From positions 1-59,697 of the forward strand of contig DAOWHH010000010.1 of the NCBI GenBank assembly GCA_030641525.1: a DNA stretch of 59,697 bases. Direction: 5' to 3'. Positions 26,161 through 52,733 of the stretch are shown here, in pieces (the first letter of the stretch is position 1; each line of letters begins with the position of its first letter). A model generated the notes under the pieces. The model saw only the letters and a list, made by a program, of their open reading frames with translations. It was not told where the DNA came from and did not search any database. This stretch comes from a bacterium (GTDB taxonomy: Bacteria > Patescibacteriota > Minisyncoccia > Phycocordibacterales > UBA12079). The position numbers and the translations under genes are program-made.

Positions 26161-26240
26161 AATATTATATTAGCTTATAGCTAATTAGCTTTCTAGCTAG
26201 TTAGAGGAAAAACCGCTTTGCGATTTTTCTATCCTAAATC
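26161..26240. repeat. Long intergenic hairpin element, CGCTTTGCG-core family
   Basis: Core GGAAAAACCGC-TTTG-CGATTTTTC at 26206-26229. It is flanked by TAGCT-rich short repeats and fills the whole nusB-rnc spacer. Confidence 0.8.
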
Positions 26241-27152
26241 TTAAATCTTTTTTATTATCCCAATTCCTTTTTCTATAATAGGTTTCATATCTTCATATAA
26301 TTCAATTTTTTCTATTTCAGGAAAAGAGAACCAACGAATATCATCTATACCTTTTGATTTTTTTTCTGAATCATCTTTAATGATATCTTTAAAATCACTT
26401 TCAGCCAAAAAATAAACAATTTTTTTCTTTATATGACCATCCTCAGTATTAAAAGCCACATACTCATTTTCACCTATTTGATCTTTTAAAATTATATCCA
26501 ATCCTGTTTTTCTTTTAGCTTTCTTTACTATAGATTCATCAGCACTTATACCCTCTTCTGTTTTCCCTTTTAATAATGACCAATATCCAAAAATATTATG
26601 AGTCAACATTATAACCATAGTATCATCAGGTTTTTTTGAATAAACCAATACACCTCTTAATATATGAGTAGGTAAATCTTTTGTGCTAATAGCTTTTTTA
26701 CGAGAAGCACTTGTTTCATGTTTTTGAGGTTCACCTAATTCTTTATAAATAGTTCCCATTACCCCACTAATAAATTTACCACTATTTTCACCTCCAAATG
26801 CTTTTGCTAATTCAATAGCCTCGTTGATTGCTACTTTAGGAGGGACTTCATCTCTGTTCGAAAACAAAAGTTCACTAATTCCCATTCTTAAAATATTTCT
26901 ATCAACAATAGAAATTTTTTCTATCGGCCACTGAGGAGCAGCTTTTTTAATAACATTATCTAAATCACTTTGCTTTTCTAAAACATTATCGATAATATTT
27001 TGAGCAAAGGTGGGGATATTGTCTATTTGAGCAAACTCTTTCATATTATTTGCTAAAATCTCCCCTATTTCAAACTTTTTTTTGTCATCTCTAGCATCCC
27101 ATTCAAAAAGAGTTTGTAACACTATTGATCTTAATAGATGTCTATCTAACAT
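26241..27152 (-). CDS. nusB: NusB-like antitermination factor fused to a degenerate Nudix-fold domain
   Basis: N-terminal ~140 aa is NusB-like (LRSIVLQTLFEWD...VAINEAIELAKAFG). The C-terminal ~150 aa has the Nudix topology. Its Nudix-box positions read G-KTEEG-I-SADESIV-KK-A-K-RK-T-G-L, so every catalytic Glu/Arg-Glu position is replaced. Confidence 0.75.
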   Translation of the reverse strand: MLDRHLLRSIVLQTLFEWDARDDKKKFEIGEILANNMKEFAQIDNIPTFAQNIIDNVLEKQSDLDNVIKKAAPQWPIEKISIVDRNILRMGISELLFSNRDEVPPKVAINEAIELAKAFGGENSGKFISGVMGTIYKELGEPQKHETSASRKKAISTKDLPTHILRGVLVYSKKPDDTMVIMLTHNIFGYWSLLKGKTEEGISADESIVKKAKRKTGLDIILKDQIGENEYVAFNTEDGHIKKKIVYFLAESDFKDIIKDDSEKKSKGIDDIRWFSFPEIEKIELYEDMKPIIEKGIGIIKKI

Positions 27153-27219
27153 AAAAAATGAACTCTAAATTAATAAAATATTTATTTTATTTTTGCCTAC
27201 TGGCAGGTAGGTTGAAAAA

Positions 27220-27525
27220 CTATTTTGTCTTTTTTGATAATTGTTTTGGATCTAATGCTTTAGCTTCTTTATCATCATCTTTAATTTTATTAGGATCTAG
27301 ACCTAATTCTTTCATTTTGGCTACTCTTCTCTCATTTTTCTTTGCTAATTTTGCATCCATATCAACTACTACTCTATCTTTATATGTTCCACATACTCCA
27401 CACATTCTATGTCTTAAATGTGAAGAACCACACTTTTTACAGCTTGATAATCTAGGAGCCTTCAAACCATGATGGGATCTCCTGTTTTTAGTATGCCCAC
27501 TTGTATGTCTCATTCTCACTGTCAT
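27220..27525 (-). CDS. rpmF: 50S ribosomal protein L32 with K/D-rich C-terminal extension
   Basis: HTKNRRSHHGLK and CKKCGSSHLRHRMCGVCGTY zinc-ribbon pattern. Confidence 0.9.
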   Translation of the reverse strand: MTVRMRHTSGHTKNRRSHHGLKAPRLSSCKKCGSSHLRHRMCGVCGTYKDRVVVDMDAKLAKKNERRVAKMKELGLDPNKIKDDDKEAKALDPKQLSKKTK

Positions 27526-27600
27526 AATAACCCAAATTATAAACTATTTTGATAAAAAAGCAACAAAAAAGGGGTGTATACATAGAATTACCTATATTTG

Positions 27601-27653
27601 AATCTCCGGAGGTTCAACCTCCGGAGATTCCCGGAGGTTGGACCTCCGGAGAT
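27601..27653. repeat. GC-rich compound palindrome (CCTCCGGAGG family), two units
   Basis: AATCTCCGGAGGTTCAACCTCCGGAGATT-CCCGGAGGTTGGACCTCCGGAGAT. Here it lies between divergent genes (rpmF/dnaE), so it is not in a terminator position. Confidence 0.9.
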
Positions 27654-27693
27654 AATAATTGAGATTTAGTTTTTGATATTATATACTGTGCTT

Positions 27694-30600
27694 ATGCACA
27701 AATTCTCACACCTTCACACTCATAGTCATTACAGCCTTTTAAATGCTTTGCCTAAAATAAAGGCTCTAGTTTCTTTAGCGAAAGAATACAAAATGCCTGC
27801 TTTGGCTTTAACTGATAGCGGAAATATGTATGGAACCATTGAGTTCTATAATGAATGTCTAAAACAAGAAATCAAACCTATTATAGGGGTAGATTTTTAT
27901 GTGGCTCTAAAAACTCGTCATGATAAAAGATCAGGAATAGATAATAGAAATAATCGCTTAATTCTTTTAGCTAAAAATGAAAAGGGTTACAAAAATCTTA
28001 TTCGACTTGTGACAGATTCTCATATACAAGGATTTTATTATAAAGCTCGTGTTGATAAAGAACTTTTAGAAAAATATAAAGAAGGTTTAATTTGTATAAT
28101 GCCTCATTTTAGTGGAGAAATATCTAAAGCTTTAGTGGTTAATGATTTTGAAAAAGCTAAAGAAATAGCAGATTGGTACAAAAGTATTTTCCCCAATTTC
28201 TTTTTAGAAATTACTCATCATCCAGAATTAGAAGGACAATTAGATTTAAAGAAAAAAATTATCGATTTCGCTAAAAAAGAAAATATAGAATTAATAGCAG
28301 GACAAGATGTTTATTATCTAAAACCAGAAGATAAAACAGCCAGAGATATTTTAATGTCAATTCAAGCCTCAGGAAGAAGTCCTTATAAAGATCAAAAAGA
28401 TAATTTCTCTTTCATTGATCAAAAAACAGCCAATGAATATTTTAAAGATACACCGTCAGCTTTAGAAAATATTCAAAAAATTATTGATTTATGTAATCTA
28501 GAATTAGAAATAGATTCTTGGATTTTTCCTGATATAGATATCCCCGAAGGAGAAGATTATAATACTCGTTTAAGAAAACTTACTTATAAAGGAATCGCAA
28601 AAAGAGGTCTTGAAGATACAGAAAAATTAAGAGAACGAATAGAATACGAATTAGAAATCATAAAAAACAAAGGCTATTCCTCGTATTTTTTGATAGTAGC
28701 TGACCTATTAAAATATGCAAGAAAGGCAGAAATATATACTAATACGAGAGGTTCAGCTGCTGGAAGTATTGTTTCTTATTTAAATTTTATCACAAGAATA
28801 AATCCTATAGAATTAAAGATTCCTTTTGAAAGATTTATGAATCCCCAACGTCCAGGAATCCCTGATATAGATGTTGATATTGCTGATATTAAAAGAGATG
28901 ATGTCATAAATTATTTAAGAGCAAAATATGGCAAAAAAGCCGTGGCTCAAATTGGAACTTTTGGAACCATGGCGGCTCGTGGTTCTGTGCGTGATGTGAC
29001 GCGAGCCCTAGGTCTTCCTTATGAACTTGGAGATAAAATTGCAAAATTAATCCCAATGGGTTCACAAGGTTTCCCCATGACAATTGAAAGAGCATTAGAA
29101 ATGGAAGAAGATCTAAGAAAATTACACAAAAATGACAAAGATGTCCAAGAAATTATTAAATATGCCAAACAAATTGAAGGTTGTGCTAGACATATTTCTA
29201 CTCATGCAGCAGGAGTGCTTATCTCTCCTACTCGTGTTGATGATTATACTCCTGTGCAATTAGATAAGGACGGTCAAATAATTACCCAATACGATATGTA
29301 TACAGGTGGTCGTGATGGGGTAGTTAATTTACCCAAATTTGATATTTTAGGAATTAAAAATCTCTCTATTCTTTCTAATACAGTTAAATTAGTCAAAAAA
29401 TTAAGAGGAATAGAAGTAGATTTAGATAATGTAGATTTAGAAGATAAAAAAACTTATGAAATGTTAGCTCGAGGCGAAACTTTGGGAACCTTTCAATTAA
29501 GTGGGCAAGGAATGACACAATATCTTAAGGCTCTAAAACCCAAATCTATTTGGGATATTATGGCTATGGTAGCTCTTTATCGTCCAGGACCAATGGCTTT
29601 TATTCCAGATTATATAAAAAGAAAAGAAAATCCAAGATTAATAAAATATCTTGTTCCTGAATTAAAAGATATCTTAGAGCCAACCTATGGAATTATAATC
29701 TATCAAGATGATGTGATGCTTATTGCTGTAAATCTAGCAGGTTATACTTGGGCAGAAGCCGATAAATTCAGAAAAGCTATGGGAAAGAAAATTCCAGAAA
29801 TGATGCAAGAACAAAAAGAGAAGTTTTTTAAAGGTTGTCTTGAACATGGTATAGAAGAAAAGAAAGTCCAAGAATTATGGGAAACAATTGAGACCTTTGC
29901 AGCCTATGGGTTTAATAAAGCTCATTCGGCCTCCTACGGACGAGTAGCCTACGAAACATCTTATATGAAAGCTAATTACCCTATTGAATATATGACAGCT
30001 CTTTTAATGGCTGATTCAGGTGATGCAGAAAAAGTAGCTGAAATAATATCTGAATGTAAAAAAATAGGTGTTCCTGTTCTTCCGCCAGATATAAATGAAT
30101 CTTTTGCAGATTTTACAATTATTAAGGATGAAGATAATAATGAATGTATTCGTTTTGGACTTCAAACCATAAAGAATTTTGGAGAAGGAATTGCTAATGC
30201 AATAATAACTGAAAGAAAAAACAATGGAAAATTCAAATCTCTAATAGATTTTATAGAAAGAATTAATAATAGAAATTTAAATAAAAAATCACTAGAAGCC
30301 TTGACCATGTGTGGAGCAATGGATTCTTTGGAGGAAAGAGGTCAGATTATGGGTAATATGCCAGAATTATTAAATTACAATAAAGAAAATGCCCAAAAAT
30401 CAAAAGATCAAATATCACTTTTTGGAGATGATGATACAGTATCCAAAATAACATTAGAAAAAACAGAACCAGCTTCTATGGAAGAAAAATTAGCTTGGGA
30501 AAAAGAATTATTAGGTTTATATATTTCAGGCCATCCTTTAGATAAATATAAAACCCAACTTGAAAAAGCTAAAACAAGTATTAAACAAATAAAAGCTGAA

Positions 30601-30858
30601 TTAAATGAAAATACAACCACAGTAGTCGCAGGAATAATAGAAGAATCAAAAGAAATTTTAACAAAAAAAGGAGAAAAAATGGCTTTTGTAAGGTTATCTG
30701 ATTTTAGTGACACATTAGAAGTTGTAGTTTTTCCTAAAATATTTAAAGAGTTTAATGAATTTTTAGAAACTGAAAAATGTGTACTTATCAAAGGTCGTTT
30801 ATCTAAACGACAAGGAGAAACATCTTTATTAGTAGAAAAAATCAAAGAATTAAAATAA
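27694..30858 (+). CDS. dnaE: DNA polymerase III alpha subunit
   Basis: PHP motif FSHLHTHSHYSLL, polymerase core and C-terminal OB fold. Start set at the first ATG (27694) rather than the track TTG at 27673. Confidence 0.95.
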   Translation: MHKFSHLHTHSHYSLLNALPKIKALVSLAKEYKMPALALTDSGNMYGTIEFYNECLKQEIKPIIGVDFYVALKTRHDKRSGIDNRNNRLILLAKNEKGYKNLIRLVTDSHIQGFYYKARVDKELLEKYKEGLICIMPHFSGEISKALVVNDFEKAKEIADWYKSIFPNFFLEITHHPELEGQLDLKKKIIDFAKKENIELIAGQDVYYLKPEDKTARDILMSIQASGRSPYKDQKDNFSFIDQKTANEYFKDTPSALENIQKIIDLCNLELEIDSWIFPDIDIPEGEDYNTRLRKLTYKGIAKRGLEDTEKLRERIEYELEIIKNKGYSSYFLIVADLLKYARKAEIYTNTRGSAAGSIVSYLNFITRINPIELKIPFERFMNPQRPGIPDIDVDIADIKRDDVINYLRAKYGKKAVAQIGTFGTMAARGSVRDVTRALGLPYELGDKIAKLIPMGSQGFPMTIERALEMEEDLRKLHKNDKDVQEIIKYAKQIEGCARHISTHAAGVLISPTRVDDYTPVQLDKDGQIITQYDMYTGGRDGVVNLPKFDILGIKNLSILSNTVKLVKKLRGIEVDLDNVDLEDKKTYEMLARGETLGTFQLSGQGMTQYLKALKPKSIWDIMAMVALYRPGPMAFIPDYIKRKENPRLIKYLVPELKDILEPTYGIIIYQDDVMLIAVNLAGYTWAEADKFRKAMGKKIPEMMQEQKEKFFKGCLEHGIEEKKVQELWETIETFAAYGFNKAHSASYGRVAYETSYMKANYPIEYMTALLMADSGDAEKVAEIISECKKIGVPVLPPDINESFADFTIIKDEDNNECIRFGLQTIKNFGEGIANAIITERKNNGKFKSLIDFIERINNRNLNKKSLEALTMCGAMDSLEERGQIMGNMPELLNYNKENAQKSKDQISLFGDDDTVSKITLEKTEPASMEEKLAWEKELLGLYISGHPLDKYKTQLEKAKTSIKQIKAELNENTTTVVAGIIEESKEILTKKGEKMAFVRLSDFSDTLEVVVFPKIFKEFNEFLETEKCVLIKGRLSKRQGETSLLVEKIKELK

Positions 30859-30972
30859 CCCCAAAATCAGCGAACTTCTTCGTCAGCTTCGGAAAAGTTA
30901 TTTTCACCTTATCGTCAGTAAGGCTCAAAAAACTTTTCTTCGCTTTCTCAAATTTCATCTGATTTTGGGGTT
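30857..30972. repeat. Long imperfect palindrome after dnaE
   Basis: AACCCCAAAATCAG (30857-70) and CTGATTTTGGGGTT (30959-72) flank 88 nt containing further complementary blocks (GAAAAGTT/AACTTTTC; CCTTA-TCGTCAG-TAAGG). Confidence 0.8.
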
Positions 30973-31051
30973 ATTTCATAGTTGGATAGTTCGTGGTTTA
31001 TTTTAATGTAAGAATGATATTTTATATCCTATAAAAACTCCTTTAAATAAT

Positions 31052-31093
31052 AAAACTGCACAAAAACTACGATCGTAGTTTTTGTGCAGTTTT
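31052..31093. terminator. Perfect 42-bp palindrome (bidirectional terminator candidate)
   Basis: AAAACTGCACAAAAACTACGA|TCGTAGTTTTTGTGCAGTTTT, with A/T runs on both sides. It lies between convergent transcription units. Confidence 0.7.
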
Positions 31094-31183
31094 ATAAAAT
31101 GTACATAAAATATTATCTAATAAATTTAATAGCCATTAAAATAAAAAAACTCTTAAAACTTTTTAAGTCTTAAGAGCTTATCT

Positions 31184-31414
31184 TCAGTATACATCTTCGT
31201 CTGTTTTTGGATTTTTGGACCAACCCTTCGAGGCTCCATAAATATTAAGTAATAAAAAGAAGATTATTCCCTTGATTACCCCAAGAAGACAAATTTCTTT
31301 ATGTAAAGGTTGCTCTTCTGATATTCTGTTAAAAAGAAGAAGAACCCTCACTATTATTATTAACGGAAACAAGAAAAAAATAGGTGTTGTAATTTTTTTC
31401 GTAGTTAACTTCAT
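31184..31414 (-). CDS. Small membrane protein (76 aa), paralogue of the adjacent gene
   Basis: Two TM helices. It shares the N-R-S/I-SE-Q and KKGW/SKGW motifs with the 73-aa neighbour. Confidence 0.55.
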   Translation of the reverse strand: MKLTTKKITTPIFFLFPLIIIVRVLLLFNRISEEQPLHKEICLLGVIKGIIFFLLLNIYGASKGWSKNPKTDEDVY

Positions 31415-31417
31415 TAC

Positions 31418-31639
31418 CTACTCCTGTATTTCTGTGTTATTGGTTTTTTTGAACCATCCTTTTTTAATTCCAAAAAACCAGAGGCAAAAAAAGAAAATTA
31501 ACCATATTAACATCCCCAAAACAAGTTCTTTATCCAAAGATTGTTCCGATCTATTTATAAAAGGAAAAATTAATCCTCCTATAAATATCCATGGAAAACC
31601 TAAAATAAAGCATACCAATCTCTTTTTTGTTATTTTCAA
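31418..31639 (-). CDS. Small membrane protein (73 aa), paralogue of the adjacent gene
   Basis: Same architecture as 31184..31414. The gap between them is 3 nt. Confidence 0.55.
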   Translation of the reverse strand: MKITKKRLVCFILGFPWIFIGGLIFPFINRSEQSLDKELVLGMLIWLIFFFCLWFFGIKKGWFKKTNNTEIQE

Positions 31640-31853
31640 TGTTTACCCCCCATGTTTTTATTATGTTGTTTTATGTAAAATAACTGTTTCTTGTATTGTA
31701 CAATTTATATATTTATAAAGCAATTTTTTTACTTTTACCTAAATTACTGGTATAATACAGTTAATTAAGGCTAAAACATCCAATATTTGAATTTTAACCA
31801 AAATTCAAATATTGGGTGTTCGCCTGAACATCTTTTAATAAAAGATGTTTTAG

Positions 31854-31925
31854 GGCCCCTTCGTCTAACGGCTAGGACATCACCCTCTCACGGTGGAAAT
31901 AGGAGTTCGATTCTCCTAGGGGTCA
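31854..31925 (+). tRNA. tRNA-Glu (anticodon CTC)
   Basis: GGCCCCT-TC-GTCT-AACGGCTA-GGAC-A-TCACC-CTCTCAC-GGTGG-AAAT-AGGAG-TTCGATT-CTCCT-AGGGGTC-A. 72 nt. CCA is not encoded. Confidence 0.9.
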
Positions 31926-32116
31926 CAAAAATACAAAAACAAAGCGATAGCTTTGTTTTTGTTAATTTTTGTAGATCTCTAGGGGAATCGAAAGACGGAG
32001 GCGCGAAGCCAATTTGTGAGCTTGCGAACAAATTGTAGCCGAGTCCGGGCAGGAGCCACTTGATAAAATATGAGTGAGTTTACGAACGAAATATTTTATC
32101 TTAGTGAGCTGACGCC

Positions 32117-32137
32117 ATTCTCCTAGGGGTCACAAAA
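32117..32137 (+). repeat. Exact 21-bp duplicate of the tRNA-Glu 3' end
   Basis: ATTCTCCTAGGGGTCACAAAA at 31910-31930 and again at 32117-32137. A degenerate third copy (TCTCTAGGGGA) lies at 31976-31986. Confidence 0.9.
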
Positions 32138-32260
32138 CGTTAAGAAAAAGTAAACTACTTTACTTTTTTAGTTTTGTGAAGGCGCAGGCATATTTTTACG
32201 ACCCATTAGGGAGTAAAAAAGCCGAGCCGAGGTCACGAACACTTATGACTTAATGATTAT

Positions 32261-33892
32261 TCATTTTCTCTTTCCTCTAACAAAACTCAAAATCTCCCCC
32301 ACTTCCCTATTCTTCATAAGCACAAGAATAAAAATCAAAATAATAGATCCTCCCAACCCTGCAAATAAACTTTGAAGAAAGACTCCACTAAATGTATTCA
32401 CATTAAGAAAATTAGCAAAAAACCCCAGTATAAAATATGTAACGATTCCTATAATAACAGAAGCAATTAAAACTTGAAAAAAAGACCTTCCTAAATCTTT
32501 TAAAGAATAGCCAAAATCTTTCTTAAATAAAAATAATAATAAAGAAATGTTTATTATCATTCCTAATGAATAACTTAATGGTAATATTAAAATATTTAAA
32601 TTATCAATATTATTTACATTTAAAATGCCTCCTAAATTTTCTTGAAAAAAAGAATTAATCACAAAAAGTTTTTTGAATAACAAAACAAAAATCACAATAC
32701 TAGCAGAAGACATAATATTTATTATCACAGGTCTTTTGGTTATGCCCATAGCATAATACCCTCTAGTAAAAAATAAGATTAAACTTTGTGCAGTCATAGA
32801 TATAGCAAAAATAGCTATACAAGCTGCTGTTAATCTAATATCTTCCAAACCAAATTTTCCCGACCCCAAAACAATTTTTACTATCTGGTCTCTTAATACT
32901 ATAAAGAAAACAGAAACAATAATTGTCCAGAAAATTATATATCTAGCAGTAATTGTTATTTGTTTTAAAAAATCTTCTTTTTGATGAATGGTAAATTTAG
33001 AAAGAGTAGAAAAAGATGCTATTGAATAACTTATCCCTATAATATTCAAAGGCACCATCTGTAGTCCTAAAGCAAAATTAAAAATAGTAATAGAACCTTC
33101 TTTCATTAATGAAGCCATTGATATTAATATCAAAATAACTAAAGATCCTGAAGAAAGAGCTAGAGTTCTTGGTAAGGATAAAGCAATTATCTTTTTGATT
33201 TTATGAAAATGAAAAACAAAGTCTGGTCTAGGGATAAATCCTAATTTATATATACTTGGAAATTGGATTAATAAATGAAGAAGAGCTCCTAAAATAACAC
33301 CAAAAGCCAATCCTTTAATCCCCCACAATGGATAAAAAGCTATAATACCCATTATTATTCCTAAATTATATAAAATTGGGCTAAGAGCATAGACAAAAAA
33401 CTTTTTTTGAACTTGTATAATACTTGTAAAAAAGTTAGAAAAACCCAATAAGATTGGTGATAAAAGCATTATTCTTGTTAATAAAATAACCTTCTCAAGA
33501 GACTCCACTGAAAAACCTTTAAAGATAAGTGGTGTTAATTTAGGAGTTACAAAGAATATTAGCAAACTAACAGACATAATAACAAGAAAAAAGAATGAAA
33601 AGATTTCATTCATAAATTCCTTACTATCTTGTTCATTCTTTTCCTTAGCTAAGAATGGAATCAAGACAGATATAGATACCATAGAGGCTACAGAGATAAA
33701 TATAAAATCAGGTATTCTAAAAGAAGCATAATAAATATCCAAGATTTCTCCTGCCCCGAATGAGTGAGCAAGTAGCCTATCTCTTAATAAAGCAAGAAGT
33801 AACGAAAGAAAAGATGATATTCCAAGAATATAAGCTGCTTTATGAAGCCCATCTATATCTTTATGTAGTAAATTAAAAAAGTTTTTAATCAT
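32261..33892 (-). CDS. murJ: Lipid II flippase MurJ/MviN
   Basis: 543 aa with ~14 TM helices. The N-terminal LLALLRDRLLAHSFGAG..LDIYYASFRIPDF matches the MurJ signature. Confidence 0.85.
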   Translation of the reverse strand: MIKNFFNLLHKDIDGLHKAAYILGISSFLSLLLALLRDRLLAHSFGAGEILDIYYASFRIPDFIFISVASMVSISVLIPFLAKEKNEQDSKEFMNEIFSFFFLVIMSVSLLIFFVTPKLTPLIFKGFSVESLEKVILLTRIMLLSPILLGFSNFFTSIIQVQKKFFVYALSPILYNLGIIMGIIAFYPLWGIKGLAFGVILGALLHLLIQFPSIYKLGFIPRPDFVFHFHKIKKIIALSLPRTLALSSGSLVILILISMASLMKEGSITIFNFALGLQMVPLNIIGISYSIASFSTLSKFTIHQKEDFLKQITITARYIIFWTIIVSVFFIVLRDQIVKIVLGSGKFGLEDIRLTAACIAIFAISMTAQSLILFFTRGYYAMGITKRPVIINIMSSASIVIFVLLFKKLFVINSFFQENLGGILNVNNIDNLNILILPLSYSLGMIINISLLLFLFKKDFGYSLKDLGRSFFQVLIASVIIGIVTYFILGFFANFLNVNTFSGVFLQSLFAGLGGSIILIFILVLMKNREVGEILSFVRGKRK

Positions 33893-36242: not shown

Positions 36243-36345
36243 ATTTTTTTAGTTTATAGATGAGTAGCTTACTAGCTTTTTAGGAGAAAAATCGCTTTGC
36301 GATTTTTCCTCTAACAAGCTAATCAGCTAACTCTCTAATTTAAAT
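36243..36345. repeat. Long intergenic hairpin element, CGCTTTGCG-core family
   Basis: Core GAGAAAAATCGC-TTTG-CGATTTTTCCTC. The arms TAGATGAGTAGCTTACTAGCTTTTTAGGAG / CCTCTAACAAGCTAATCAGCTAACTCTCTA are imperfectly complementary. Confidence 0.85.
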
Positions 36346-38584: not shown

Positions 38585-38681
38585 AAATTAAGTATTAAGT
38601 ATCAGGTATTAAGTATTAAGTATGTAAAATTCGCTTTGCGAATTTTGGCTTGATACTTGATACTTACTACTTGCTACTTTG
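38585..38681. repeat. Long intergenic hairpin element, CGCTTTGCG-core family (AAGTAT-arm subfamily)
   Basis: Core AAAATTCGC-TTTG-CGAATTTT at 38626-38646. The left arm is built of AAGTAT(T/C)A repeats and the right arm of (T/C)GATACTT repeats. Confidence 0.85.
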
Positions 38682-40464: not shown

Positions 40465-40475
40465 TGTTTAAAAAC

Positions 40476-40510
40476 AAAATCTCCGGAGGTTGGACCTCCG
40501 GAGATTTTTT
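40476..40510. repeat. GC-rich palindrome (CCTCCGGAGG family), single unit
   Basis: AAAATCTCCGGAGGT-TGG-ACCTCCGGAGATTTTTT. Between convergent genes. Confidence 0.9.
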
Positions 40511-40551
40511 ATTTGTATTTATTCGCAGAATTTATATATCCGTATGTTTAC

Positions 40552-44360: not shown

Positions 44361-44503
44361 TATTATAACCTAAAAAAGTATTAAGTAGAAAGTATCAAGT
44401 ATCAGGTATGGAAAAATTGCAAAGCAATTCTTTCTGATCTATAAAATTCGCTTTGTGAATTTTAGCTTAATGCTTCCTGCTTGATACATAATACTTAATC
44501 ATT
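44361..44503. repeat. Two adjacent copies of the CGCTTTGCG-core hairpin element (AAGTAT-arm subfamily)
   Basis: Cores GGAAAAATTGC-AAAG-CAATTCTTTC (44410-34, opposite orientation) and AAAATTCGC-TTTG-TGAATTTT (44444-64). The arms AAGTATTAAGTAGAAAGTATCAAGTATCAGGTAT / CTTGATACATAATACTTAAT resemble those of the 38585 copy. Confidence 0.8.
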
Positions 44504-44965
44504 ATGTTATCAGAACAAATAAGAAGTGAATTAAAAGAATCAATGAAAAATAGAGATGAACTTTCTATGACAGTATTAAGAAGCCTCTTGTCTGGTTTCA
44601 CAAATGAATTAGTGGCTCAAAAAAAGAAACCACAAGATGAAATTTCAGATGAGGATGCTTTAAATGTCATCAAAAAAGCAGTCAAACAAAGAAAAGACTC
44701 CATTGAACAATTTGAAAAAGGAGGAAGAGATGATTTAGTTCAAAGTGAGAAAAAAGAATTAGAAATTCTTAATAAATATCTTCCTGAAATGATGCCTATT
44801 GAAGAAATCAAAAAAATCGCTGAAAGCAAAAGATCAGAATTAGGGATTGAGGATCAATCTAAAATGGGAATTTTAATCGGAGCAGTAATGAAAGAAATAA
44901 AAACAAAAGGAGAAGAAGCTGACGGCTCTGATGTAAAACAGGCTGTAGAAGAACTTTTCACTTAA
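44504..44965 (+). CDS. GatB/YqeY domain protein
   Basis: IRSELKESMKNRDELSMTVLRSLLS...E.E.L..YLP pattern. Confidence 0.85.
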   Translation: MLSEQIRSELKESMKNRDELSMTVLRSLLSGFTNELVAQKKKPQDEISDEDALNVIKKAVKQRKDSIEQFEKGGRDDLVQSEKKELEILNKYLPEMMPIEEIKKIAESKRSELGIEDQSKMGILIGAVMKEIKTKGEEADGSDVKQAVEELFT

Positions 44966-45110
44966 TATTTAAAAAAAAAGCTATCCGATAGCCACTGGCT
45001 ATCGGATAACTGCTTTTTTGTTTTATTAGAGTCTATATTCTACATTCTAATATCCCAAAAATGTAAATATGTACACAAACATAGCGACTACTCTATTTGT
45101 GTATATGTTT

Positions 45111-46859
45111 TTATAATTTTTCCAAAACATGCAATTCATTAATTGCTCGAGTTAATCCTACATATAAAATATCTTTCTCAATCTTTATCCATTCTTCTTC
45201 TATATTATTTAATCGTATATTCTCTAAAAATTCTTTTTTATTAAAGCCGACAATAAAAACAATATCAAATTCAACTCCTTGTGCTTGTCTAATACTAAAT
45301 AAATGAATATTTTTTTGTTTATTAAATTTTTTCTGAAATTCTTCCAAATAATCCTTATCTCGAGATAATATTCCTATATTTGCGTATTTTTTACCTAATA
45401 AATATTTTTTAATATAACCAATCTCTTGCTTCTTGTTCTGGAAACTTTTTTCTACAACAGGGACACCTTCTCTTGTTTTTTTGGAGATTTCAATTTCGTA
45501 GCCCATCTTTTTTATATATTTTAATATTTGTTTTGTACTTCTATAAACCTTGTTCAAAACAACCTTTCTTTCGTTAGGAATAATCTCTTGGATTTGTTCT
45601 AAAGAATATATAGTCCCAAAATATATCTTTTGAGCAATATCTCCAACATAAATAATTGATCTATTATCTTTGTTAATATAATTTTGGATTATTTTTATTT
45701 GATCTGGTAAATAATTTTGAAATTCATCTATTAATATCAAAGAATATGTAAGTAAATCTTTTATTTTATTATGATGAATTTTTAGTAATAAGGTTAAATC
45801 AAACCTATCTAATGTTTTTTGTTTCTTTTGTTGTAAAAATAATTTAAAACTTTGTTTTGATAATGATTTTTTATAAATTTCTTCTAATACTAAATGTGGT
45901 TTTTTTGAATCATATTTAAATTTTTTGAGGTTATTATTTTCTAATCCTAAAAGTGTTTGATTTTTCTCATATTTAAATTGTCTTCTTTCTTCTTTAGAAT
46001 CTCCATAAGTTATTGAAAACTCAAGATTTTTAATTTTTAAAATATTGATAGCCCATTCTGAAAATGTAGTAATCTCAACCTTGTCTATACCTAATTCGGG
46101 CAAGAGGTGAGAAAAATATTCTTTAGTTTTTGTGTCTTGTACAAAAACGATAATGCTTTTACTTGGATATAAAAGATTAGTTTCAGGAGATTGTTTAAGA
46201 TAAGCGATCCTATGTAAAGCTAATGTAGTTTTTCCAGATCCAGCTGCTCCTGTAATTAAAAATGGTCCATTATGTTTAGCTCTAATTACTTTATCTTGAG
46301 CCTTTTCCATTTGACTAACAATTTCAGGTAAAAGAAATTTTTTCTTTTTTGTTGAAAAATATTCTTGATAAATTAATTCTTTAGGATAATCTTTAGTTTC
46401 GGATGTTAAAAATAAGATTTTTCCATCAACAATCATAAAATTGTCTTTTCGAAGTAATTTCCCAAATCTTTTTTTGTTATTTTGTAAAGTAAAAGAAAAT
46501 TTACCTATATTTTCAAAACGTAATTGAGCAGCTGGAGTTGTCCAAGAATAAATAGATTTTTTATCAAAATTAAATTTGGCAAAATAAATTGTTTTTTCTT
46601 GTTTTTCGTCTTCAAAAATAACATCACATCTAATAAAATAAGGGTTGGGATAAAGTTTCTTTAATTCTACTTTTCTTGATGAATCAAAACGAATAATTTG
46701 TTGTAATGTTGCCGATTCCGAAGGAGAAGAGATTGAGAGTTTCTTGATATTTTTTTCATATCTTTTTTCACGATTTAATAGAGATTTTTTGATATTTTTT
46801 TGGACAAAAGAAATATGAGTTTTACTTTTCTGTAAAATTTCTTTTTTATTTATTTTCAT
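45111..46859 (-). CDS. UvrD/Rep-family (HelD-like) helicase, short form
   Basis: Walker A GAAGSGKTTLALHRIAYL, LIDEFQN (motif II), and C-terminal GVEFD / VGLTRA motifs. Confidence 0.8.
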   Translation of the reverse strand: MKINKKEILQKSKTHISFVQKNIKKSLLNREKRYEKNIKKLSISSPSESATLQQIIRFDSSRKVELKKLYPNPYFIRCDVIFEDEKQEKTIYFAKFNFDKKSIYSWTTPAAQLRFENIGKFSFTLQNNKKRFGKLLRKDNFMIVDGKILFLTSETKDYPKELIYQEYFSTKKKKFLLPEIVSQMEKAQDKVIRAKHNGPFLITGAAGSGKTTLALHRIAYLKQSPETNLLYPSKSIIVFVQDTKTKEYFSHLLPELGIDKVEITTFSEWAINILKIKNLEFSITYGDSKEERRQFKYEKNQTLLGLENNNLKKFKYDSKKPHLVLEEIYKKSLSKQSFKLFLQQKKQKTLDRFDLTLLLKIHHNKIKDLLTYSLILIDEFQNYLPDQIKIIQNYINKDNRSIIYVGDIAQKIYFGTIYSLEQIQEIIPNERKVVLNKVYRSTKQILKYIKKMGYEIEISKKTREGVPVVEKSFQNKKQEIGYIKKYLLGKKYANIGILSRDKDYLEEFQKKFNKQKNIHLFSIRQAQGVEFDIVFIVGFNKKEFLENIRLNNIEEEWIKIEKDILYVGLTRAINELHVLEKL

Positions 46860-46873
46860 TTTAGTTTTAATGT

Positions 46874-48829
46874 TTATTCCAATATAGCTTTAATTCTCCT
46901 CACTCCAGCAGAACTACTTTGTTCTTTAATTATTTTAAATTTACCCAATTCTCCAGTATTTTCAACATGAGGTCCACTACATATTTCATGAGAGAAATCC
47001 CCTATTTCATATACTTTTACTTTTTCTCCGTATTTAGAATCAAATACTCCAGAAGCCCCTTTTTCTTTAGCCTCATCTACAGTCATTTCGTCACAATTAA
47101 TATTTATTTTTTTAGAAATAACCTCATTTACCAATCTTTCCACTTCTTCTTTTTGCACATCAGTTAATTTTTCATCCCAAGAAAAATCAAATCTTAATCT
47201 CTCTGCAGTAATATTAGAACCTTTTTGTTGAACTTTTTCTCCTAAGACTTTTTGTAAAGCTGCCAAAAGTAAATGAGCAGCAGTATGTAATTGAGTAGTC
47301 TCTTTAGAAGTATCTGCTAAACCACTTTTAAATTTTCCAATAGTTGCTGTTCGTGAAAGTTCTTGGTGTTTTTTCATAGCTTCATTAAATAGTGTTATTA
47401 TCCTTTCTTTGTTATCTCCTTCCATTAAGTCTAAACCTGCGCCTTTTCTTATTTTATTTATTTCCTCTAAACTCATTTCAATAGGAAATCCGTAAGTAGT
47501 AAATAAAGTAAAAAGAATTTTCCCTATCTTTCTATTATAAGGAGACTTATATTCAGAAAACTCCTCTCCTTCTTCAACTTTATCAATTATAGTCCCAGAC
47601 CATTTTTCTAATTCCTTCAAACCTTTCTCTAAGGTTTGAGAAAATTTATATTCTTCTTTTACCAAACTATCTTGAATAAAAACTTTGTTTCTTTCTAACT
47701 CAGGGTAAACATCTTTGTATTCTTCTATCACTTTTTCTGCGACTAAAAATGTAAAATGTGGTTCTTTTATACCAATAGTTTTAGCATACCGAATAGCACG
47801 ACGAATTAATCTTCGTACAATATATCCTTGGTCAGTATTGGAAGGACTAATTCCTTTATCGTCTCCCATAATAAAAACAGCTCCTCTCAAGTGATCCATG
47901 ACCACTCTAAAAGAATAAGTAATTTTTTCTGATTCATTATATTGTTTACCAGATAATTCCTCTAATTTACTCTTCACTCCAGAAAACAAATCTCCCATAA
48001 AAATATCTGGATTATCTAAAATAGCTACAGCCATTCTTTCTAATCCTCCACCAAAATCAATATTTTTATTCTCAAGTGGCTCAAATCCAGTTTCTGTTTT
48101 TATATATTCCATGAAAACATTATTTCCAATCTCTAAAAATCTCCCGCAATCACAAGTAGGATGACAAACCTGATCTTTATAAGGAGAATTTTCATGGATC
48201 TGTCTATTAGCCCCAAAATCCCAAAATATCTCAGAATCTGGTCCCCCAGGCTCTCCTACAGGCATTTTATCTGGAGTTCCTGATCTAGACCACCAATTTT
48301 CTTTTTCATCATAATAGAATATTCTTCCTTCTTGCATTCCATCTTTTTCAGCCATATCTACAACTTTAGCTTTTATTCCAACACTCTCAAATCTTTCTTG
48401 CCATAATTTTACAGCTTCTTCGTCTCTAGGAATTCCTAATTTTTTATCTCCCCTAAAGGTTGTCACATAAATTCTATTAGGATCTAATTTTAATTCTTTT
48501 ATTAAAAATTCAAAGACCCATTCTATTTGTTCTTTTTTAAAATAATCACCCAAAGACCAATTACCTAACATTTCAAAAAAAGTAGTGTGACGATTATCAC
48601 CAACATCTTCAATATCTAGAGCCCTAAAAGATTTTTGAGAATTTGTTATGCGAGTTCCCTCAGGATGTTTTTCTCCTAATAAATACGGAAGGATTGGCTG
48701 CATTCCTGAACCAGTAAATAAAGTAGTAGGGTCATTATCAGGCATTATAGAAGCACTGGGAATAATTTTATGTCCCTTATCCTTAAAAAATTTCAAATAT
48801 TTTTCTCTTATTTTTTTAGTAGTTAACAT
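46874..48829 (-). CDS. alaS: Alanine--tRNA ligase (short form lacking the C-terminal C-Ala/DHHA1 region)
   Basis: IREKYLKFFKDKGH, FTGSGMQP, NVFMEY, and editing-domain HTAAHLL...CSGPHV. 651 aa. Confidence 0.92.
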   Translation of the reverse strand: MLTTKKIREKYLKFFKDKGHKIIPSASIMPDNDPTTLFTGSGMQPILPYLLGEKHPEGTRITNSQKSFRALDIEDVGDNRHTTFFEMLGNWSLGDYFKKEQIEWVFEFLIKELKLDPNRIYVTTFRGDKKLGIPRDEEAVKLWQERFESVGIKAKVVDMAEKDGMQEGRIFYYDEKENWWSRSGTPDKMPVGEPGGPDSEIFWDFGANRQIHENSPYKDQVCHPTCDCGRFLEIGNNVFMEYIKTETGFEPLENKNIDFGGGLERMAVAILDNPDIFMGDLFSGVKSKLEELSGKQYNESEKITYSFRVVMDHLRGAVFIMGDDKGISPSNTDQGYIVRRLIRRAIRYAKTIGIKEPHFTFLVAEKVIEEYKDVYPELERNKVFIQDSLVKEEYKFSQTLEKGLKELEKWSGTIIDKVEEGEEFSEYKSPYNRKIGKILFTLFTTYGFPIEMSLEEINKIRKGAGLDLMEGDNKERIITLFNEAMKKHQELSRTATIGKFKSGLADTSKETTQLHTAAHLLLAALQKVLGEKVQQKGSNITAERLRFDFSWDEKLTDVQKEEVERLVNEVISKKININCDEMTVDEAKEKGASGVFDSKYGEKVKVYEIGDFSHEICSGPHVENTGELGKFKIIKEQSSSAGVRRIKAILE

Positions 48830-48922
48830 AACAATAAATTTGATTTAAAATAATAAACACAATTTACAGGGTCGCAGAGGCGACCTTTATAGCTATTGCG
48901 TTTCTGTTTATTATGTTTAATT

Positions 48923-49144
48923 TCACCTTAATTTATCATATTCCTCAATAGACAATTGAATATCATTTAAAATTTTTCTAGTTAAACCTTTACCCATTTC
49001 TCTATTATGAATAGAAATTACAGTTGTTCTACCATCTGGATGTTTAAAAAATAAATGAGAACTTTCTGCATCTCTTTCCCTAAAACCTAAAATCAAAAGA
49101 ATTTTTACAAATTTCCTTGGTTTAATAGGAATAAGTTTAGGCAT
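48923..49144 (-). CDS. hicA: HicA-family toxin
   Basis: KFVKILLILGFRERDAESSHLFFKHPDGRTTVISIHNREMGKGLTRKILNDIQLS fits the HicA/YcfA pattern. 8-nt overlap with hicB. Confidence 0.8.
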   Translation of the reverse strand: MPKLIPIKPRKFVKILLILGFRERDAESSHLFFKHPDGRTTVISIHNREMGKGLTRKILNDIQLSIEEYDKLR

Positions 49145-49367
49145 ATTCCATTTTTAAATTCTGAATACCAATAAATTTTGTCTTTTCTAAATCTTTTTTC
49201 TTTATTTTAGAATTTCTCAAGCATAATTTTAAAACCTCTTGTAAATTTTCAAACATTTTTTCTTGAGTTTTACCTTCTGCATAACAACTATTCACAGCAG
49301 GAATAGACCCGATATAAATACCATCTTCATCCTGTTCTATATAAACTGTAAAAAATTTATTTTTCAT
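49137..49367 (-). CDS. hicB: HicB-family antitoxin (UPF0150-like)
   Basis: FTVYIEQDEDGIYIGSIPAVNSCYAEGKTQEKMFENLQEVLKLCL. Confidence 0.8.
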   Translation of the reverse strand: MKNKFFTVYIEQDEDGIYIGSIPAVNSCYAEGKTQEKMFENLQEVLKLCLRNSKIKKKDLEKTKFIGIQNLKMEYA

Positions 49368-49448
49368 ATTGATATATTACACATATTTAAATAAAAAAAC
49401 AAACGACTCAATCATAGAGTCGTTTTAATTTTCTGAAACAGAATCTTC

Positions 49449-49736
49449 TTAAAGATTTTCAGGTATTAATTCTCTTAAATCATTACCTTCTATTTGAACA
49501 AGTTTAAGATTTTTTTCTATTGTACATCCTTTTCTCATTTCCTTTACCAAGGCAAAGGTTTCCGATGGTTTGAAAAAACCAACCTTTCCCTCTTTGAAGA
49601 CAATTACCAAGCTTGAATCGTCTTTTTCCCTTACTGTTATAAAGGACCCCAAATCCAATTTTTTCCCATTTAAAAAAGCCGAAGCTTCTTTATTTGTAAG
49701 GTTTTTCTTAATGTCTTTAATCGTTTCAATAGACAT
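49449..49736 (-). CDS. Hypothetical protein (95 aa)
   Basis: Clean ORF with its own terminator (ACGACTC-(7 nt)-GAGTCGT at about 49397-49417, T-run on the minus strand). Confidence 0.55.
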   Translation of the reverse strand: MSIETIKDIKKNLTNKEASAFLNGKKLDLGSFITVREKDDSSLVIVFKEGKVGFFKPSETFALVKEMRKGCTIEKNLKLVQIEGNDLRELIPENL

Positions 49737-49904
49737 TTTACCCCCTATATTGAAATAAGTTTATTAGAACTTTCAAGATCTCTTGATTGACATATTAATA
49801 CTTATTTCTATCAAAGTCAAAATATAAAAAACGTAAAAAATATTTCTCTATTAAATAGGTTATAAACCATTTAAATCAAATGATTTATATTATATTAAAG
49901 AATT

Positions 49905-50516
49905 TCAGAAATTTTTCAAAATCTCAAAATCCTTCTTCAAATCATCCCGACTAAAAGAATTATACAAAGCTACTGCAGGATGAAGTAATGGAATTATCTT
50001 TATATCTCCATAAGGAGCTTTAGCTCCAAAAGCCTTGCCCCGCATTTTCCCTATTGGCTCTATTTCAAAATCTAAATCAAATTTTTTCATAATATATTCC
50101 GCAGAATATCTCCCTAAAGTTGCTATCACCTTAGGTTGAATTATATCTATCTGTCTATCCAAAAAAGGTCCATAAATTTTTATTTCTTCTAAGGAAGGGT
50201 CACGATTGGCTGTTGGTCTATCCTTTACTATATTTGTCACATAAACATCTTTTCTATCCATTTTTATAGATTCCAAAAGTTCATCCAATACTCTACCGGA
50301 AGCTCCACAAAAAGGTCGTCCTTGTTCAGCTTCATTTTTTCCAGGAGCTTCACCCACAAACATTATTTTAGCATTATGGTTTCCTGCTCCTAGCACAGGA
50401 AAAACCTTATTTTTAACCCTTTCTTTGTACAAAGGAGACCTTTTGAGATTTAATACCTCATCTTTTATCTCTTTTAATTTTTCAGTTTTAGGCATATTTT
50501 TTAGCTTATTAGTCAA
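49905..50516 (-). CDS. Uracil-DNA glycosylase, family 4
   Basis: MFVGEAPGKNEAEQGRPFCGASGRVLDELL and HPAVALYN motifs. Confidence 0.9.
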   Translation of the reverse strand: MTNKLKNMPKTEKLKEIKDEVLNLKRSPLYKERVKNKVFPVLGAGNHNAKIMFVGEAPGKNEAEQGRPFCGASGRVLDELLESIKMDRKDVYVTNIVKDRPTANRDPSLEEIKIYGPFLDRQIDIIQPKVIATLGRYSAEYIMKKFDLDFEIEPIGKMRGKAFGAKAPYGDIKIIPLLHPAVALYNSFSRDDLKKDFEILKNF

Positions 50517-50657
50517 TTAATTAGTAATCTAATCCTCTAACCCTTAACTTTCTAAATATAATAACATATATTATAAATGACGAAGGTTGATATTCTAATA
50601 AAAAAGAGTATTCTATAGAAATAAGTTATTTATAAAAACCTTTTTTCAGGAGCTTTT

Positions 50658-50921
50658 ATGTTTTTTTTGACACTCTTAGACGGAACCAATATTACTCAAT
50701 CTGAGTTTAGAAATAATTTAAATTCAAATGGATATTCATTGGATCTAAGTCCTCCATTATATATGGGTGATAAAGTTGATATATTTTATTTTGTAAAGAA
50801 TAATGGAAATCCTTTTTGTAAATTTCAAATAGTTTTTACAAAAGATAAAACATATTCATATCCTCGTAGCTCAGAAGAAAAGAATTTTTTGAGACTTTTA
50901 AAGGATTGTTCAATATTTTAA
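50658..50921 (+). CDS. Hypothetical protein (87 aa)
   Basis: ORF with a CAGGAG SD. No family recognised. Confidence 0.5.
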   Translation: MFFLTLLDGTNITQSEFRNNLNSNGYSLDLSPPLYMGDKVDIFYFVKNNGNPFCKFQIVFTKDKTYSYPRSSEEKNFLRLLKDCSIF

Positions 50922-50933
50922 TTGGTGTGGAAA

Positions 50934-51656
50934 TTAAATGATAGGAATAATTTGAGAAATATGTTCTAAAATCATTTTGACTGAAGGAGAACTATCATTC
51001 AAATATGAACGACATTTTATAATCTCATTAAAAACCTCCTTCTGATTAATCTGTGAAGATCCGATCTTCACAGACCTACCTATCGGACAGGCAGTTTTGA
51101 ATTTATTATAAAGAATTTTTTCTAAATCATTTAAAAAAGAAATAGCACCTGATTTATCTGCTTTTTCGTTTGTTTTTTGGGGCAGAAATATCTTAATTAA
51201 ATCAAATCTTTTAGATATATTTGATTTAAGAAAATCTTCCACCAAACCACTCTTACTTGGACCTCCAAGGTCCAAGTGTTTAATTATATTTAATCGTGAT
51301 TTTAATGTAGGTAAAATAGCTTCCGATGAAGGCATTATCAAGAATATATGAGTATTTATAGTCGGTTCCTCAAAAACTTTTAAAAGAGAATTCTGTGCTT
51401 GGACAGTAATAAAATTAGTTTTTATAACAATGATTTTATTTTCACCACCAATAGCTTTTTTAGATTGAAAATTATTTATATACCTCCCATCTTCTATTCC
51501 AAAGGTATCAAAATCTCCTAGATAGAAATCAGGATTAGATTTTATTTTAAAATCAATTTTATCTTCCAAAAAAAATAAAAGTTCTTTAAAAATATTTTCC
51601 TTATCCCCCTCTAAAAGATAAGCATGATGGAGTTTATTATCTTTTTGAAATAACAC
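50934..51656 (-). CDS. holB: DNA polymerase III delta' subunit-like clamp-loader protein
   Basis: LHHAYLLEG, AQNSLLKVFEEP and LPTLKSR motifs. It lacks an intact Walker A, as is typical for delta'. Confidence 0.8.
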   Translation of the reverse strand: MLFQKDNKLHHAYLLEGDKENIFKELLFFLEDKIDFKIKSNPDFYLGDFDTFGIEDGRYINNFQSKKAIGGENKIIVIKTNFITVQAQNSLLKVFEEPTINTHIFLIMPSSEAILPTLKSRLNIIKHLDLGGPSKSGLVEDFLKSNISKRFDLIKIFLPQKTNEKADKSGAISFLNDLEKILYNKFKTACPIGRSVKIGSSQINQKEVFNEIIKCRSYLNDSSPSVKMILEHISQIIPII

Positions 51657-52650
51657 TTTTCCTATAAATATTTAAATGTTGTAAAGCTATTCCTGTTCCT
51701 TTAGAAACACAAAAAAATGGATCTTTAGCTAATTGAGCTTTTACCCCTGTTCTTTTAAAGATTAATTCGGGAAGATTTCTTAATTGAGAAGAACCTCCTG
51801 TCATGATGATTCCTTTTTGAATAATATCGGCCGATAATTCAGGTGGTGTTTCTTGAAAAACAACCTTTATTGCTTTAACCATTTCTTTCAACTCTTTATT
51901 TAAAGCTTTCACTACCTCGTTTGTTTTTATTTCAATAGATTTAGGTAATCCAGAAATAAAATCTCTTCCTCTTATTTCCATTCTTAATTCATCTTCTAAA
52001 AGTAATGCTGATCCAATATTTATTTTAAGATTCTCAGCTGTTTTATCTCCTATAGATAAATTATAATTTTTTTTCACAAAATCCATAATAGCTCTATTCA
52101 TTTTATCCCCAGCACATTTTACAGAGGTTGAAGCAACTATGCCCCCAAGAGAAATTACCGCTACATCTATTGTTCCCCCTCCGATATCAACTATCATATG
52201 CCCTCCTGCCTCTTCTATTGTAACACCAGCTCCAATAGCAGCTAAAATAGGTTCTTTAACCACAAAAGCTTTTTTAGCTCCTGCTTTCATTGTAGCCTCT
52301 ATAACAGCTCTTCTTTCCGTAGATGTCACTCCCGCAGGAACAGATATAATAACTTCTGGTTTAAAAATATTCCATTTTCCTAATGCTTTATTTATATAAT
52401 AATTTAGCATAGCTTCTGTCACTCTATAATCTGCTATAACACCATCTTTCATAGGTCTGTAAGTTACGATACTTTCAGGGGTTCTTCCTACCATTTTTTT
52501 TGCTTCTACTCCAACAGCTAAAATTTTATTATCAATTTCAGAAACAGCGACAACAGACGGTTCACTTAAAACAATTCCTCTTCCAGGAGAAAAAACTAAA
52601 GTATTTGCTGTTCCTAAATCTATTCCTAATTTTTTTGTAAATAAAGACAT
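51637..52650 (-). CDS. mreB: Rod shape-determining protein MreB
   Basis: LGIDLGTANTLV, VDIGGGTIDVAV and IIMTGGSSQLRNL actin-fold motifs. Confidence 0.95.
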   Translation of the reverse strand: MSLFTKKLGIDLGTANTLVFSPGRGIVLSEPSVVAVSEIDNKILAVGVEAKKMVGRTPESIVTYRPMKDGVIADYRVTEAMLNYYINKALGKWNIFKPEVIISVPAGVTSTERRAVIEATMKAGAKKAFVVKEPILAAIGAGVTIEEAGGHMIVDIGGGTIDVAVISLGGIVASTSVKCAGDKMNRAIMDFVKKNYNLSIGDKTAENLKINIGSALLLEDELRMEIRGRDFISGLPKSIEIKTNEVVKALNKELKEMVKAIKVVFQETPPELSADIIQKGIIMTGGSSQLRNLPELIFKRTGVKAQLAKDPFFCVSKGTGIALQHLNIYRKSVISKR

Positions 52651-52733
52651 AATGTTTCAGTTATTGGTTTTTAGTTATTATTTGTTAGTGGAAAAATCAC
52701 TCTGCGATTTTCTTTACTAAAAACTAGAAACTA
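52651..52733. repeat. Long intergenic hairpin element, CGCTTTGCG-core family (diverged core)
   Basis: Core GGAAAAATCAC-TCTG-CGATTTTC at 52690-52712. The arms GGTTTTTAGTTATTATTTGTTAGTG / CTTTACTAAAAACTAGAAAC are partly complementary. Confidence 0.75.

Follow-up and report, generated by a model that had tools for sequence, protein, structure and literature searches.

Core-and-array hairpins in operon spacers of a Patescibacteria genome and their relation to 23S rRNA intervening sequences

What are the long imperfect hairpins that occupy several short spacers directly in front of genes in a small patescibacterial genome? Five such spacers (S1 to S5) lie between positions 26161 and 52733 of the window, by which we mean the whole stretch analyzed, contig DAOWHH010000010.1 of assembly GCA_030641525.1 (59,697 nucleotides [nt]). 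A first-pass annotation of these letters had described them as copies of one repeat family placed upstream of essential minus-strand genes, and had offered RNA processing by RNase III, translational control, or a mobile palindrome as candidate roles. The comparisons reported here lead us to regard the hairpins as probably short, gene-less members of a family of selfish palindromes of the intervening-sequence (IVS) type that is restricted to a single family of Paceibacteria-like Patescibacteria.

The window is contig C3 of a genome (G000) of 585 kb, with 30% G+C and 18 contigs. It was compared with five congeners (G001 to G005), in which the gene order around the window is kept at 70 to 80% nucleotide identity, and with further relatives; the relatives are metagenome bins. 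Gene calls on other contigs and loci are our own longest-open-reading-frame calls. The rRNA genes of G000 are not in its assembly; the 23S and 16S evidence comes from relatives.

Structure and range of the repeat

All six core hairpins that had been located in the five spacers are present, with matches at 26209, 36288, 38627, 44413, 44444, and 52693 (11 strand-matches versus 0.14 expected from shuffles). Each of these cores has an 8-bp stem and a 3-nt loop, of the type AAAATCGC-TTT-GCGATTTT or a compensated variant; across the family, the covarying core measures 8 to 11 bp, with the general form A4-5 N2 RC / loop / GY N2 T4-5. The five spacers all fold more stably than dinucleotide shuffles (z from -3.5 to -8.1, with 0 of 200 shuffles equal). 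Covariation was found in the core and not, copy by copy, in the arms. In the core, 91% of the cells were paired versus 83% in shuffles, 7 of the 11 pairs were altered on both sides, and at least eight compensated variants had both half-sites altered together, among them ATTGC/GCAAT, ATCAC/GTGAT, AATTCGC/GCGAATT, and CGT/ACG.

The prediction of more copies elsewhere in the genome was borne out by both pattern and covariance-model searches. A fuzzy pattern recovered about 31 intergenic copies in G000, a stricter hairpin scan gave 46 copies versus 9 in reversed-sequence controls, and R1, a covariance model built on the core hairpin, found 48 matches in G000 and 28 to 44 in each of the five congeners. 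Matches to R1 numbered 17 to 40 in three sister genera (one genome each; other genomes of one of these genera gave 17, 12, and 1), 1 to 22 in a fourth genus, and 0 to 3 in 22 other families of the order. The covariance models of Rfam did not match the elements even at E ≤ 1.

Outward from the core, both arms consist of G-poor tandem arrays of 7- to 9-nt units, including TAGCTnnn, AAGTATT, and AAAGTYnnn, and the array subfamilies (nnAGCTAn, ATACTTn, AACTTTnnn, AACTAnnn, and CCTAAnn) are tied to core variants. Nearly all copies of the AAAGTY subfamily end in GACTAA, followed by 4 to 9 nt and the ATG, and one subfamily has defined ends (GAGTCAAAAGTC ... GACTAA). The arms had been described as variable yet self-complementary. 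This holds insofar as they are inverted arrays of short repeats; they are not free-form complements, and the stop-side arm of the copy upstream of rnc is noncomplementary. Several copies have arms of differing types or a single arm only. The mean pairing score of a copy's own two arms was 7.5 versus 5.1 for random partners; when ranked together with foreign arms, however, the own partner paired best for just 1 of 133 copies, and its median position was 64 among 264. The proposal that structure rather than sequence is under selection in the arms thus loses its footing, since own arms pair no better than many foreign ones, and their variable self-complementarity is explained by array subfamilies rather than by copy-by-copy compensatory evolution. 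A sense-strand RNA signature was also considered and rejected, as folding energy favored the sense strand in 12 copies and the antisense strand in 7 and was equal in 3.

The elements have a strict polarity. On the strand of the downstream gene, the order is stop codon, WAGY array of 7- to 9-nt units, core, RCTW array, often CTAA, 4 to 9 A/T-rich nt, and ATG. Among 135 intergenic cores from nine genomes, the core-to-ATG distance peaked at 30 to 50 nt (79 of 138 start-facing sides), and the core-to-stop distance was broad. Upstream of starts, RCTW arrays were found at 33 genes versus 8 for WAGY arrays; downstream of stops, WAGY arrays numbered 18 versus 5 for RCTW (controls, 0 to 2 in both cases). 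Of 66 genes with an element, 35 had the tetranucleotide CTAA at -10 to -7, compared with 27 of 564 genes genome-wide. Loop orientation was weakly biased, with the purine loop on the sense strand in a ratio of 57:34. About 6 to 8% of genes carry an element, and the tie to essential minus-strand genes proved incidental: copies also precede recA, rpsH, rpsD, nusA, lysS, gap, rnpA, ybeY, and pilus genes on both strands. The downstream genes are housekeeping genes of all kinds.

Two further observations concern the core. Its exact 23-nt form, GAAAAATCGCTTTGCGATTTTTC, also occurs in unrelated genomes, some of them G+C rich, where about 0.02 chance matches are expected: Rhizomicrobium, a metagenome-assembled genome (MAG) of the Rickettsiales (twice, 107 nt apart), a Proteobacteria MAG, Saprospiraceae, Woesearchaeota, and Omnitrophica. 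None of these copies lies within an rRNA gene. In addition, G000 contains composite units in which the core-stem halves GAGAAAAATTTGC ... GCAAATTTTTCC are about 115 nt apart (C2 16864-17076; also C1 7697-7856, C9 2274-2406, and C8 at ~4567). The insert consists of other small hairpin repeats, with TAAATTAAAACTTTGTTTTAATCC in three copies together with GGACGAACATCAAAGATGTTTTAGTC-type units, and the composite units are nested insertions into the core loop.

Members in 23S rRNA genes and around PF05635 genes

The 23S rRNA gene of congener G002 contains four R1 matches (E values of 4e-6 to 8e-5). One copy lies at position 583/584 of the large-subunit (LSU) rRNA model, the loop or tip of helix 25, and a second replaces model positions 1882-1911; the two further copies were placed against an uninterrupted 23S, and helix assignments are approximate for two of the four insertions. 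The tips of helices 25 and 45 of 23S rRNA are the classical sites of IVS insertion. Mis-binning of the 23S contigs of such metagenome-bin relatives is conceivable in principle, though family-specific arrays are present on them. The 23S gene of a genome from another family (G021) also holds paired arrays.

The second connection is with PF05635, the '23S rRNA intervening-sequence protein' (S23p). At the slot upstream of mreB, G003 carries a PF05635 gene between inverted arrays, and all 12 of the readable PF05635 genes of relatives, this one included, are co-oriented in stop-to-start slots between inverted unit arrays, with the downstream array abutting the next ATG. In one locus (L162), a 27-nt stretch of the flanking arms (GACTTTATAAACTTTTGACTAAATTAT) is shared with arms of copies that have a core. 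These long forms have the PF05635 four-helix-bundle gene in place of the core.

Such matches, made between sequences, show the identity of the spacer repeats with the 23S rRNA insertions and the PF05635-flanking arrays. Since copies occur within 23S rRNA in a congener and arrays flank PF05635 genes, an IVS-type palindrome appears to have colonized operon spacers as well. Consequently, the mobile palindrome, at first one alternative among several, is strengthened, and the proposed role of RNase III gains support from the same observations.

Bacterial 23S rRNA IVSs, known from Salmonella, Leptospira, and Coxiella burnetii, are likewise A+T-rich extended stem-loops, of ~90 to 150 nt or, with an open reading frame (ORF), ~430 to 760 nt. 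The Coxiella IVS, which has been described as selfish and which RNase III excises, has variable-number tandem heptamers beside its S23p ORF (PMC4990558). The elements described here resemble IVSs in that core-plus-array units occupy four sites of the G002 23S rRNA gene, the helix-25 tip among them, and in the arrays around PF05635 genes. They differ in that most copies, and all those of the window, occupy stop-to-start gaps in protein-coding operons with a fixed polarity toward the downstream ATG, and in that each 0.6-Mb genome has dozens of them, which belong to several array subfamilies but have a covarying apical hairpin in common. In the literature searched, we found no account of IVS-type elements in mRNA spacers, nor of palindromic repeats or IVS-like elements in the spacers of Patescibacteria.

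Two side observations were made on these 23S sequences. The G002 gene (L171, C9 27919-33742) is 5.8 kb long, and an extra insertion in it encodes a LAGLIDADG-type protein (...NYISGFTDGEGSFNV). Furthermore, a spacer between protein genes on contig C11 of G003 (L092, before the orthologue of the G000 gene at C10 40248) contains CCCCTCACCCAGA...TCTGGGTGAGGGG, whose 13-bp stem is the stem that brackets a 113-nt insertion in the G002 23S gene (L085/L171; LSU model position ~1765). An rRNA helix tip thus seems to have travelled together with its insertion.

Turnover, mechanism, and alternatives

The copies upstream of rnc (S1) and mreB (S5) were found in G000 only, and the corresponding spacers measure 5 to 25 nt in four congeners. 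That the family is specially tied to rnc or to essential genes is not supported, because S1 and S5 are absent at the orthologous sites in four of the five congeners; the two copies are not conserved leaders of essential genes, and S1 is a lineage-specific insertion upstream of rnc itself. At S3, different subfamilies occupy the slot in three genomes: G001 has an AAAGTC-type copy and G004 a different core, with nothing in G003. At the divergent spacer S4, G001 and G005 have no element, G002 has arrays around a larger center, and G003 and G004 have an inserted winged helix-turn-helix gene. Overall, of 58 gene starts with a copy in a relative, 14 are also occupied in G000, and decayed remnants of elements exist. 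The comparison of orthologous spacers therefore shows copies gained and lost between species and different subfamilies filling the same slot. Sporadic presence among close relatives is also a trait of IVSs, which are regarded as selfish, and it is seen here in the absences at S1 and S5 and in the 14 of 58 shared starts. No strain-level empty sites were found: exact-protein look-ups returned the same strain only, at 99.95% identity.

If the hairpins are IVS-type elements, their behavior can be outlined as follows. The copies would be co-transcribed with host genes, as their position inside ribosomal-protein and other conserved operons suggests (they occur upstream of rpsH and at several ribosomal-protein operon junctions). 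Their arrays would pair into a 25- to 40-bp stem, which the genome's RNase III would cut. In rRNA, the element would thus be removed; in an operon, the cistrons would end up on separate molecules, and the downstream mRNA would keep only a very short leader. By analogy with rRNA IVSs, RNase III cleavage of the array stems is likely, and to our knowledge every experimentally studied rRNA IVS is cut by this enzyme. The strict orientation toward the start codon would then arise because insertions of this kind do no harm, or from a target preference.

A very short leader would be tolerable in this lineage because it has neither Shine-Dalgarno (SD) sequences nor a CCUCC anti-SD. Around gene starts genome-wide, G content is at most 15% at every position from -40 to -1, and an SD signal is found in no gene class. 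The 16S rRNA of a congener (G004 C14, L151) ends in ...GGTGGTCGTGGATTATTTCAAAATG, and the CCTCC/CCUCC anti-SD is missing; on this rRNA, the anti-SD is lost in the genus. The 3' end of L151 reads GGATTATTTCAAAA instead of GGATCACCTCCTTA. The earlier remark that the genes downstream of the hairpins have no obvious SD sequence is thus true, but the absence is a lineage-wide trait and not a property of the element. AAGGAG is present near the start in 18 genes despite the missing signal. We rejected CTAA as a replacement for the SD, given that at -10 to -7 it is element specific and not a general ribosome-binding motif.

Several results weigh against a selfish IVS-type origin. No copy of the window lies in an rRNA gene, all five occupied sites being mRNA spacers. 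G000 and G005 have no PF05635 gene and yet have copy numbers like the others, which implies that the PF05635 protein is not needed to keep copies. Arms are weak or one-sided in S1, S5, C7 1939, C7 6340, and C12 9447, which would make such copies poor substrates for RNase III. Mismatches of the G.U type number 75 in the sense and 108 in the antisense direction, so that the mRNA strand is not favored; the slight antisense lean does not point to selection for mRNA pairing. No target-site duplication is visible when filled and empty sites are compared at 70 to 80% flank identity, and neither a transposase nor any other copying mechanism was found. No autonomous, transposase-encoding relative was found; the sole gene-bearing form seen carries PF05635, which is not a known transposase. 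A link with small GIY-YIG nucleases was dropped because those genes sit among other repeats and are not adjacent. Finally, the shared occupancy of 24% is threefold the background of ~8% and does not decay from the genus to the family level. This excess, the fixed distance to the ATG, and the CTAA end would equally fit a function useful to the host, and they speak for some constraint.

It is important to consider, then, that the hairpins may be an intercistronic or 5'-leader module selected by the host, in which the array and CTAA, kept at constant spacing from the ATG, would act in translation initiation or mRNA stability without SD and anti-SD, and the core would protect RNA ends. We consider this possible but doubtful. 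The sharp 30- to 50-nt distance, the strict polarity, the position of CTAA where an SD would lie, the nondecaying occupancy excess, and the copies in ribosomal-protein operons all fit such a module. On the contrary, the same gene starts are without a copy in most congeners, only some 6 to 8% of genes are served, different subfamilies occupy the same slot, there are decayed remnants, and the same units are found inside 23S rRNA, where there is no start codon.

An origin as repetitive extragenic palindromic (REP) sequences or bacterial interspersed mosaic elements (BIMEs), copied by a REP-associated tyrosine transposase (RAYT, of the Y1 HUH type), is unlikely. G000 has two RAYT-like PF01797 genes, similar ones are present in most relatives, and HUH enzymes read hairpin shape and would tolerate compensatory changes. 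Nevertheless, both RAYT-like genes (C2 73858-74535 and C9 28435-29103) are flanked by different, G+C-rich palindromes (CCGGAGGT / GGAGGTC type), such genes also occur in families without the core repeat, and the copies hug gene starts rather than gene ends and have no conserved GTAG-type foot. REP/BIME and the ERIC/IRU repeats of enterobacteria (enterobacterial repetitive intergenic consensus, or intergenic repeat units) are dispersed imperfect palindromes in transcribed spacers that are mosaic and affect mRNA stability, and the nested and tandem units seen here recall that mosaic build. REP sequences differ in being 20 to 40 nt long, with a conserved GTAG foot, mostly after gene ends, and in being tied to flanking RAYT genes; the present units are start-proximal and 80 to 140 nt long.

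A DNA-level control module, in which a dimeric regulator would bind the core as its operator, centered ~52 nt upstream of the ATG, and the arrays would be phased protein sites or a promoter, seems slightly less probable again. It would account for the perfect 8-3-8 dyad symmetry of the core and its fixed position relative to the ATG. The compensated core variants, however, fit base pairing and not a fixed protein contact, the 7- to 9-bp array period is out of phase with the DNA helix, and copies lie inside rRNA genes and operons. Sigma-70-like sites were no commoner than in shuffles and none was within an element, which also disposes of sigma-70 promoters inside the arms; a hand search for -35/-10 pairs yielded no consistent pattern. 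That the hairpins are ordinary intrinsic terminators or chance palindromes of A+T-rich spacers is hardly credible, even with the exact 23-nt core present in unrelated genomes and terminator-like in one or more of these (L002, where a long stem is followed by a T-run), since the stems here are followed by no T-run (0 of the 6 cores scored as terminator-like, in agreement with the first-pass annotation), two cores lie between divergent genes, counts far exceed shuffled and reversed controls, the repeat is limited to one lineage, and copies occur inside operons and rRNA.

Among elements not tied to rRNA, the Correia elements (CREE/NEMIS) of Neisseria also resemble the hairpins. They are palindromic, nonautonomous intergenic repeats of ~100 to 150 bp that are co-transcribed, and RNase III cuts their hairpins and alters mRNA stability. 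They are bounded by conserved 26-bp terminal inverted repeats, duplicate a TA target, and contain internal promoter and IHF sites, whereas in the present elements the center is conserved, the arms are unit arrays, no duplication is seen, and no promoter consensus was found.

The IVS-type reading ties together three subjects so far handled separately: the intervening sequences of rRNA, the orphan gene family of S23p/PF05635, and the palindromes that fill the tiny spacers of Patescibacteria. If RNase III cuts the stems, operon junctions at ~6 to 8% of the genes here would be processed into separate mRNAs, and such processing in a lineage without SD/anti-SD pairing would bear on how ribosomes find start codons. 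The hairpins also call for caution in annotation, because they resemble gene-specific leaders, such as an RNase III autoregulatory site at rnc, and are not conserved there. As a tentative extension, IVSs could be no peculiarity of rRNA but part of a broader class of hairpin elements, some having an Avd-like S23p gene and others lacking it, that become established at sites from which RNase III can excise them (rRNA helix tips and operon stop-to-start gaps). Cleavage at the stem base would then make short-leader mRNAs used by the anti-SD-less ribosome, the elements would be operon spacers excised at the RNA level, and pentameric S23p would recognize the 7- to 9-nt arrays when elements are copied or maintained.

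The five spacers and other repeats of the window

The gene products named for the window (RNase III, MreB, a tetratricopeptide-repeat [TPR] membrane protein, D-Ala-D-Ala carboxypeptidase, and P-type ATPase) were confirmed, and the partner of the ATPase at S4 is YqeY. S1 (26161-26243, minus strand) extends from the NusB-Nudix gene (stop codon 26241-26243) to the rnc start at 26160; rnc itself (25468-26160, minus strand) encodes a dsRBD-containing RNase III, the candidate for the enzyme that would process the stems. The S1 core occupies 26209-26227. A good array is present only on the start-codon side (26161-26208, of the RCTW type, with AGCTA units on the mRNA strand), and the stop-side arm (26228-26243) is short. 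At the orthologous site, G001, G002, G003, and G005 have no copy, and G004 has a coreless array remnant.

S2 (36250-36340, minus strand) precedes the TPR membrane-protein gene (start 36242), with its core at 36288-36306 and TAGCT/AGCTA arrays on both sides. Its hairpin (~36257-36337) has a folding energy (dG) of -39.3 and a z of -8.1. It adjoins the start codon, leaving ~55 nt of spacer on the stop side, and a sigma-70-like TTTAAA-17-TATAAT at 36392-36364, upstream of S2, fits S2 as part of a leader. S3 (38585-38681, minus strand) fills the gap from the ScpB gene to the carboxypeptidase gene and consists of the core AAATTCGC-TTT-GCGAATTT (38627-38645) between heptad arrays of AAGTATT / AATACTT.

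S4 (44361-44503) separates the divergent genes for the P-type ATPase (minus strand) and YqeY (yqeY, plus strand). Both of its cores (44413-44431 and 44444-44462) lie within one pair of outer heptad arrays (~44376-44410 and ~44464-44498), and the G.U wobble of each core is on the strand of the nearer gene. The gene inserted into this spacer in G003 and G004 (L035, L039) encodes an ArsR-like winged-helix protein of ~100 amino acids and is placed between long A+T palindromes. S5 (52651-52733, minus strand) fills the gap between an EPSP-synthase-fold (MurA-type) gene and mreB, with the core AAAATCAC-TCT-GCGATTTT at 52693-52711 and TAGTT/AACTA arrays; its slot is an empty spacer of 5 to 16 nt in G001, G004, and G005.

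Other repeats accompany these elements. A separate G+C-rich palindrome family (ATCTCCGGAGGTnnAACCTCCGGAGAT and relatives) stands at gene ends and scored as bidirectional terminators, in the window at 10481-10524, 27602-27653, 40470-40514, and 57360-57431. Hairpins related to it bracket both RAYT-like genes, as in a REP/RAYT pair (C2 73822-73850 and 74552-74581; C9 28285-28375). In addition, a 36-nt near-palindrome, TAGTAAAAATAAnnATTAnCATAATCATTTTTACTA, is repeated three times with 87-nt spacing at 19214-19423 of the window, upstream of the gene at 19440.

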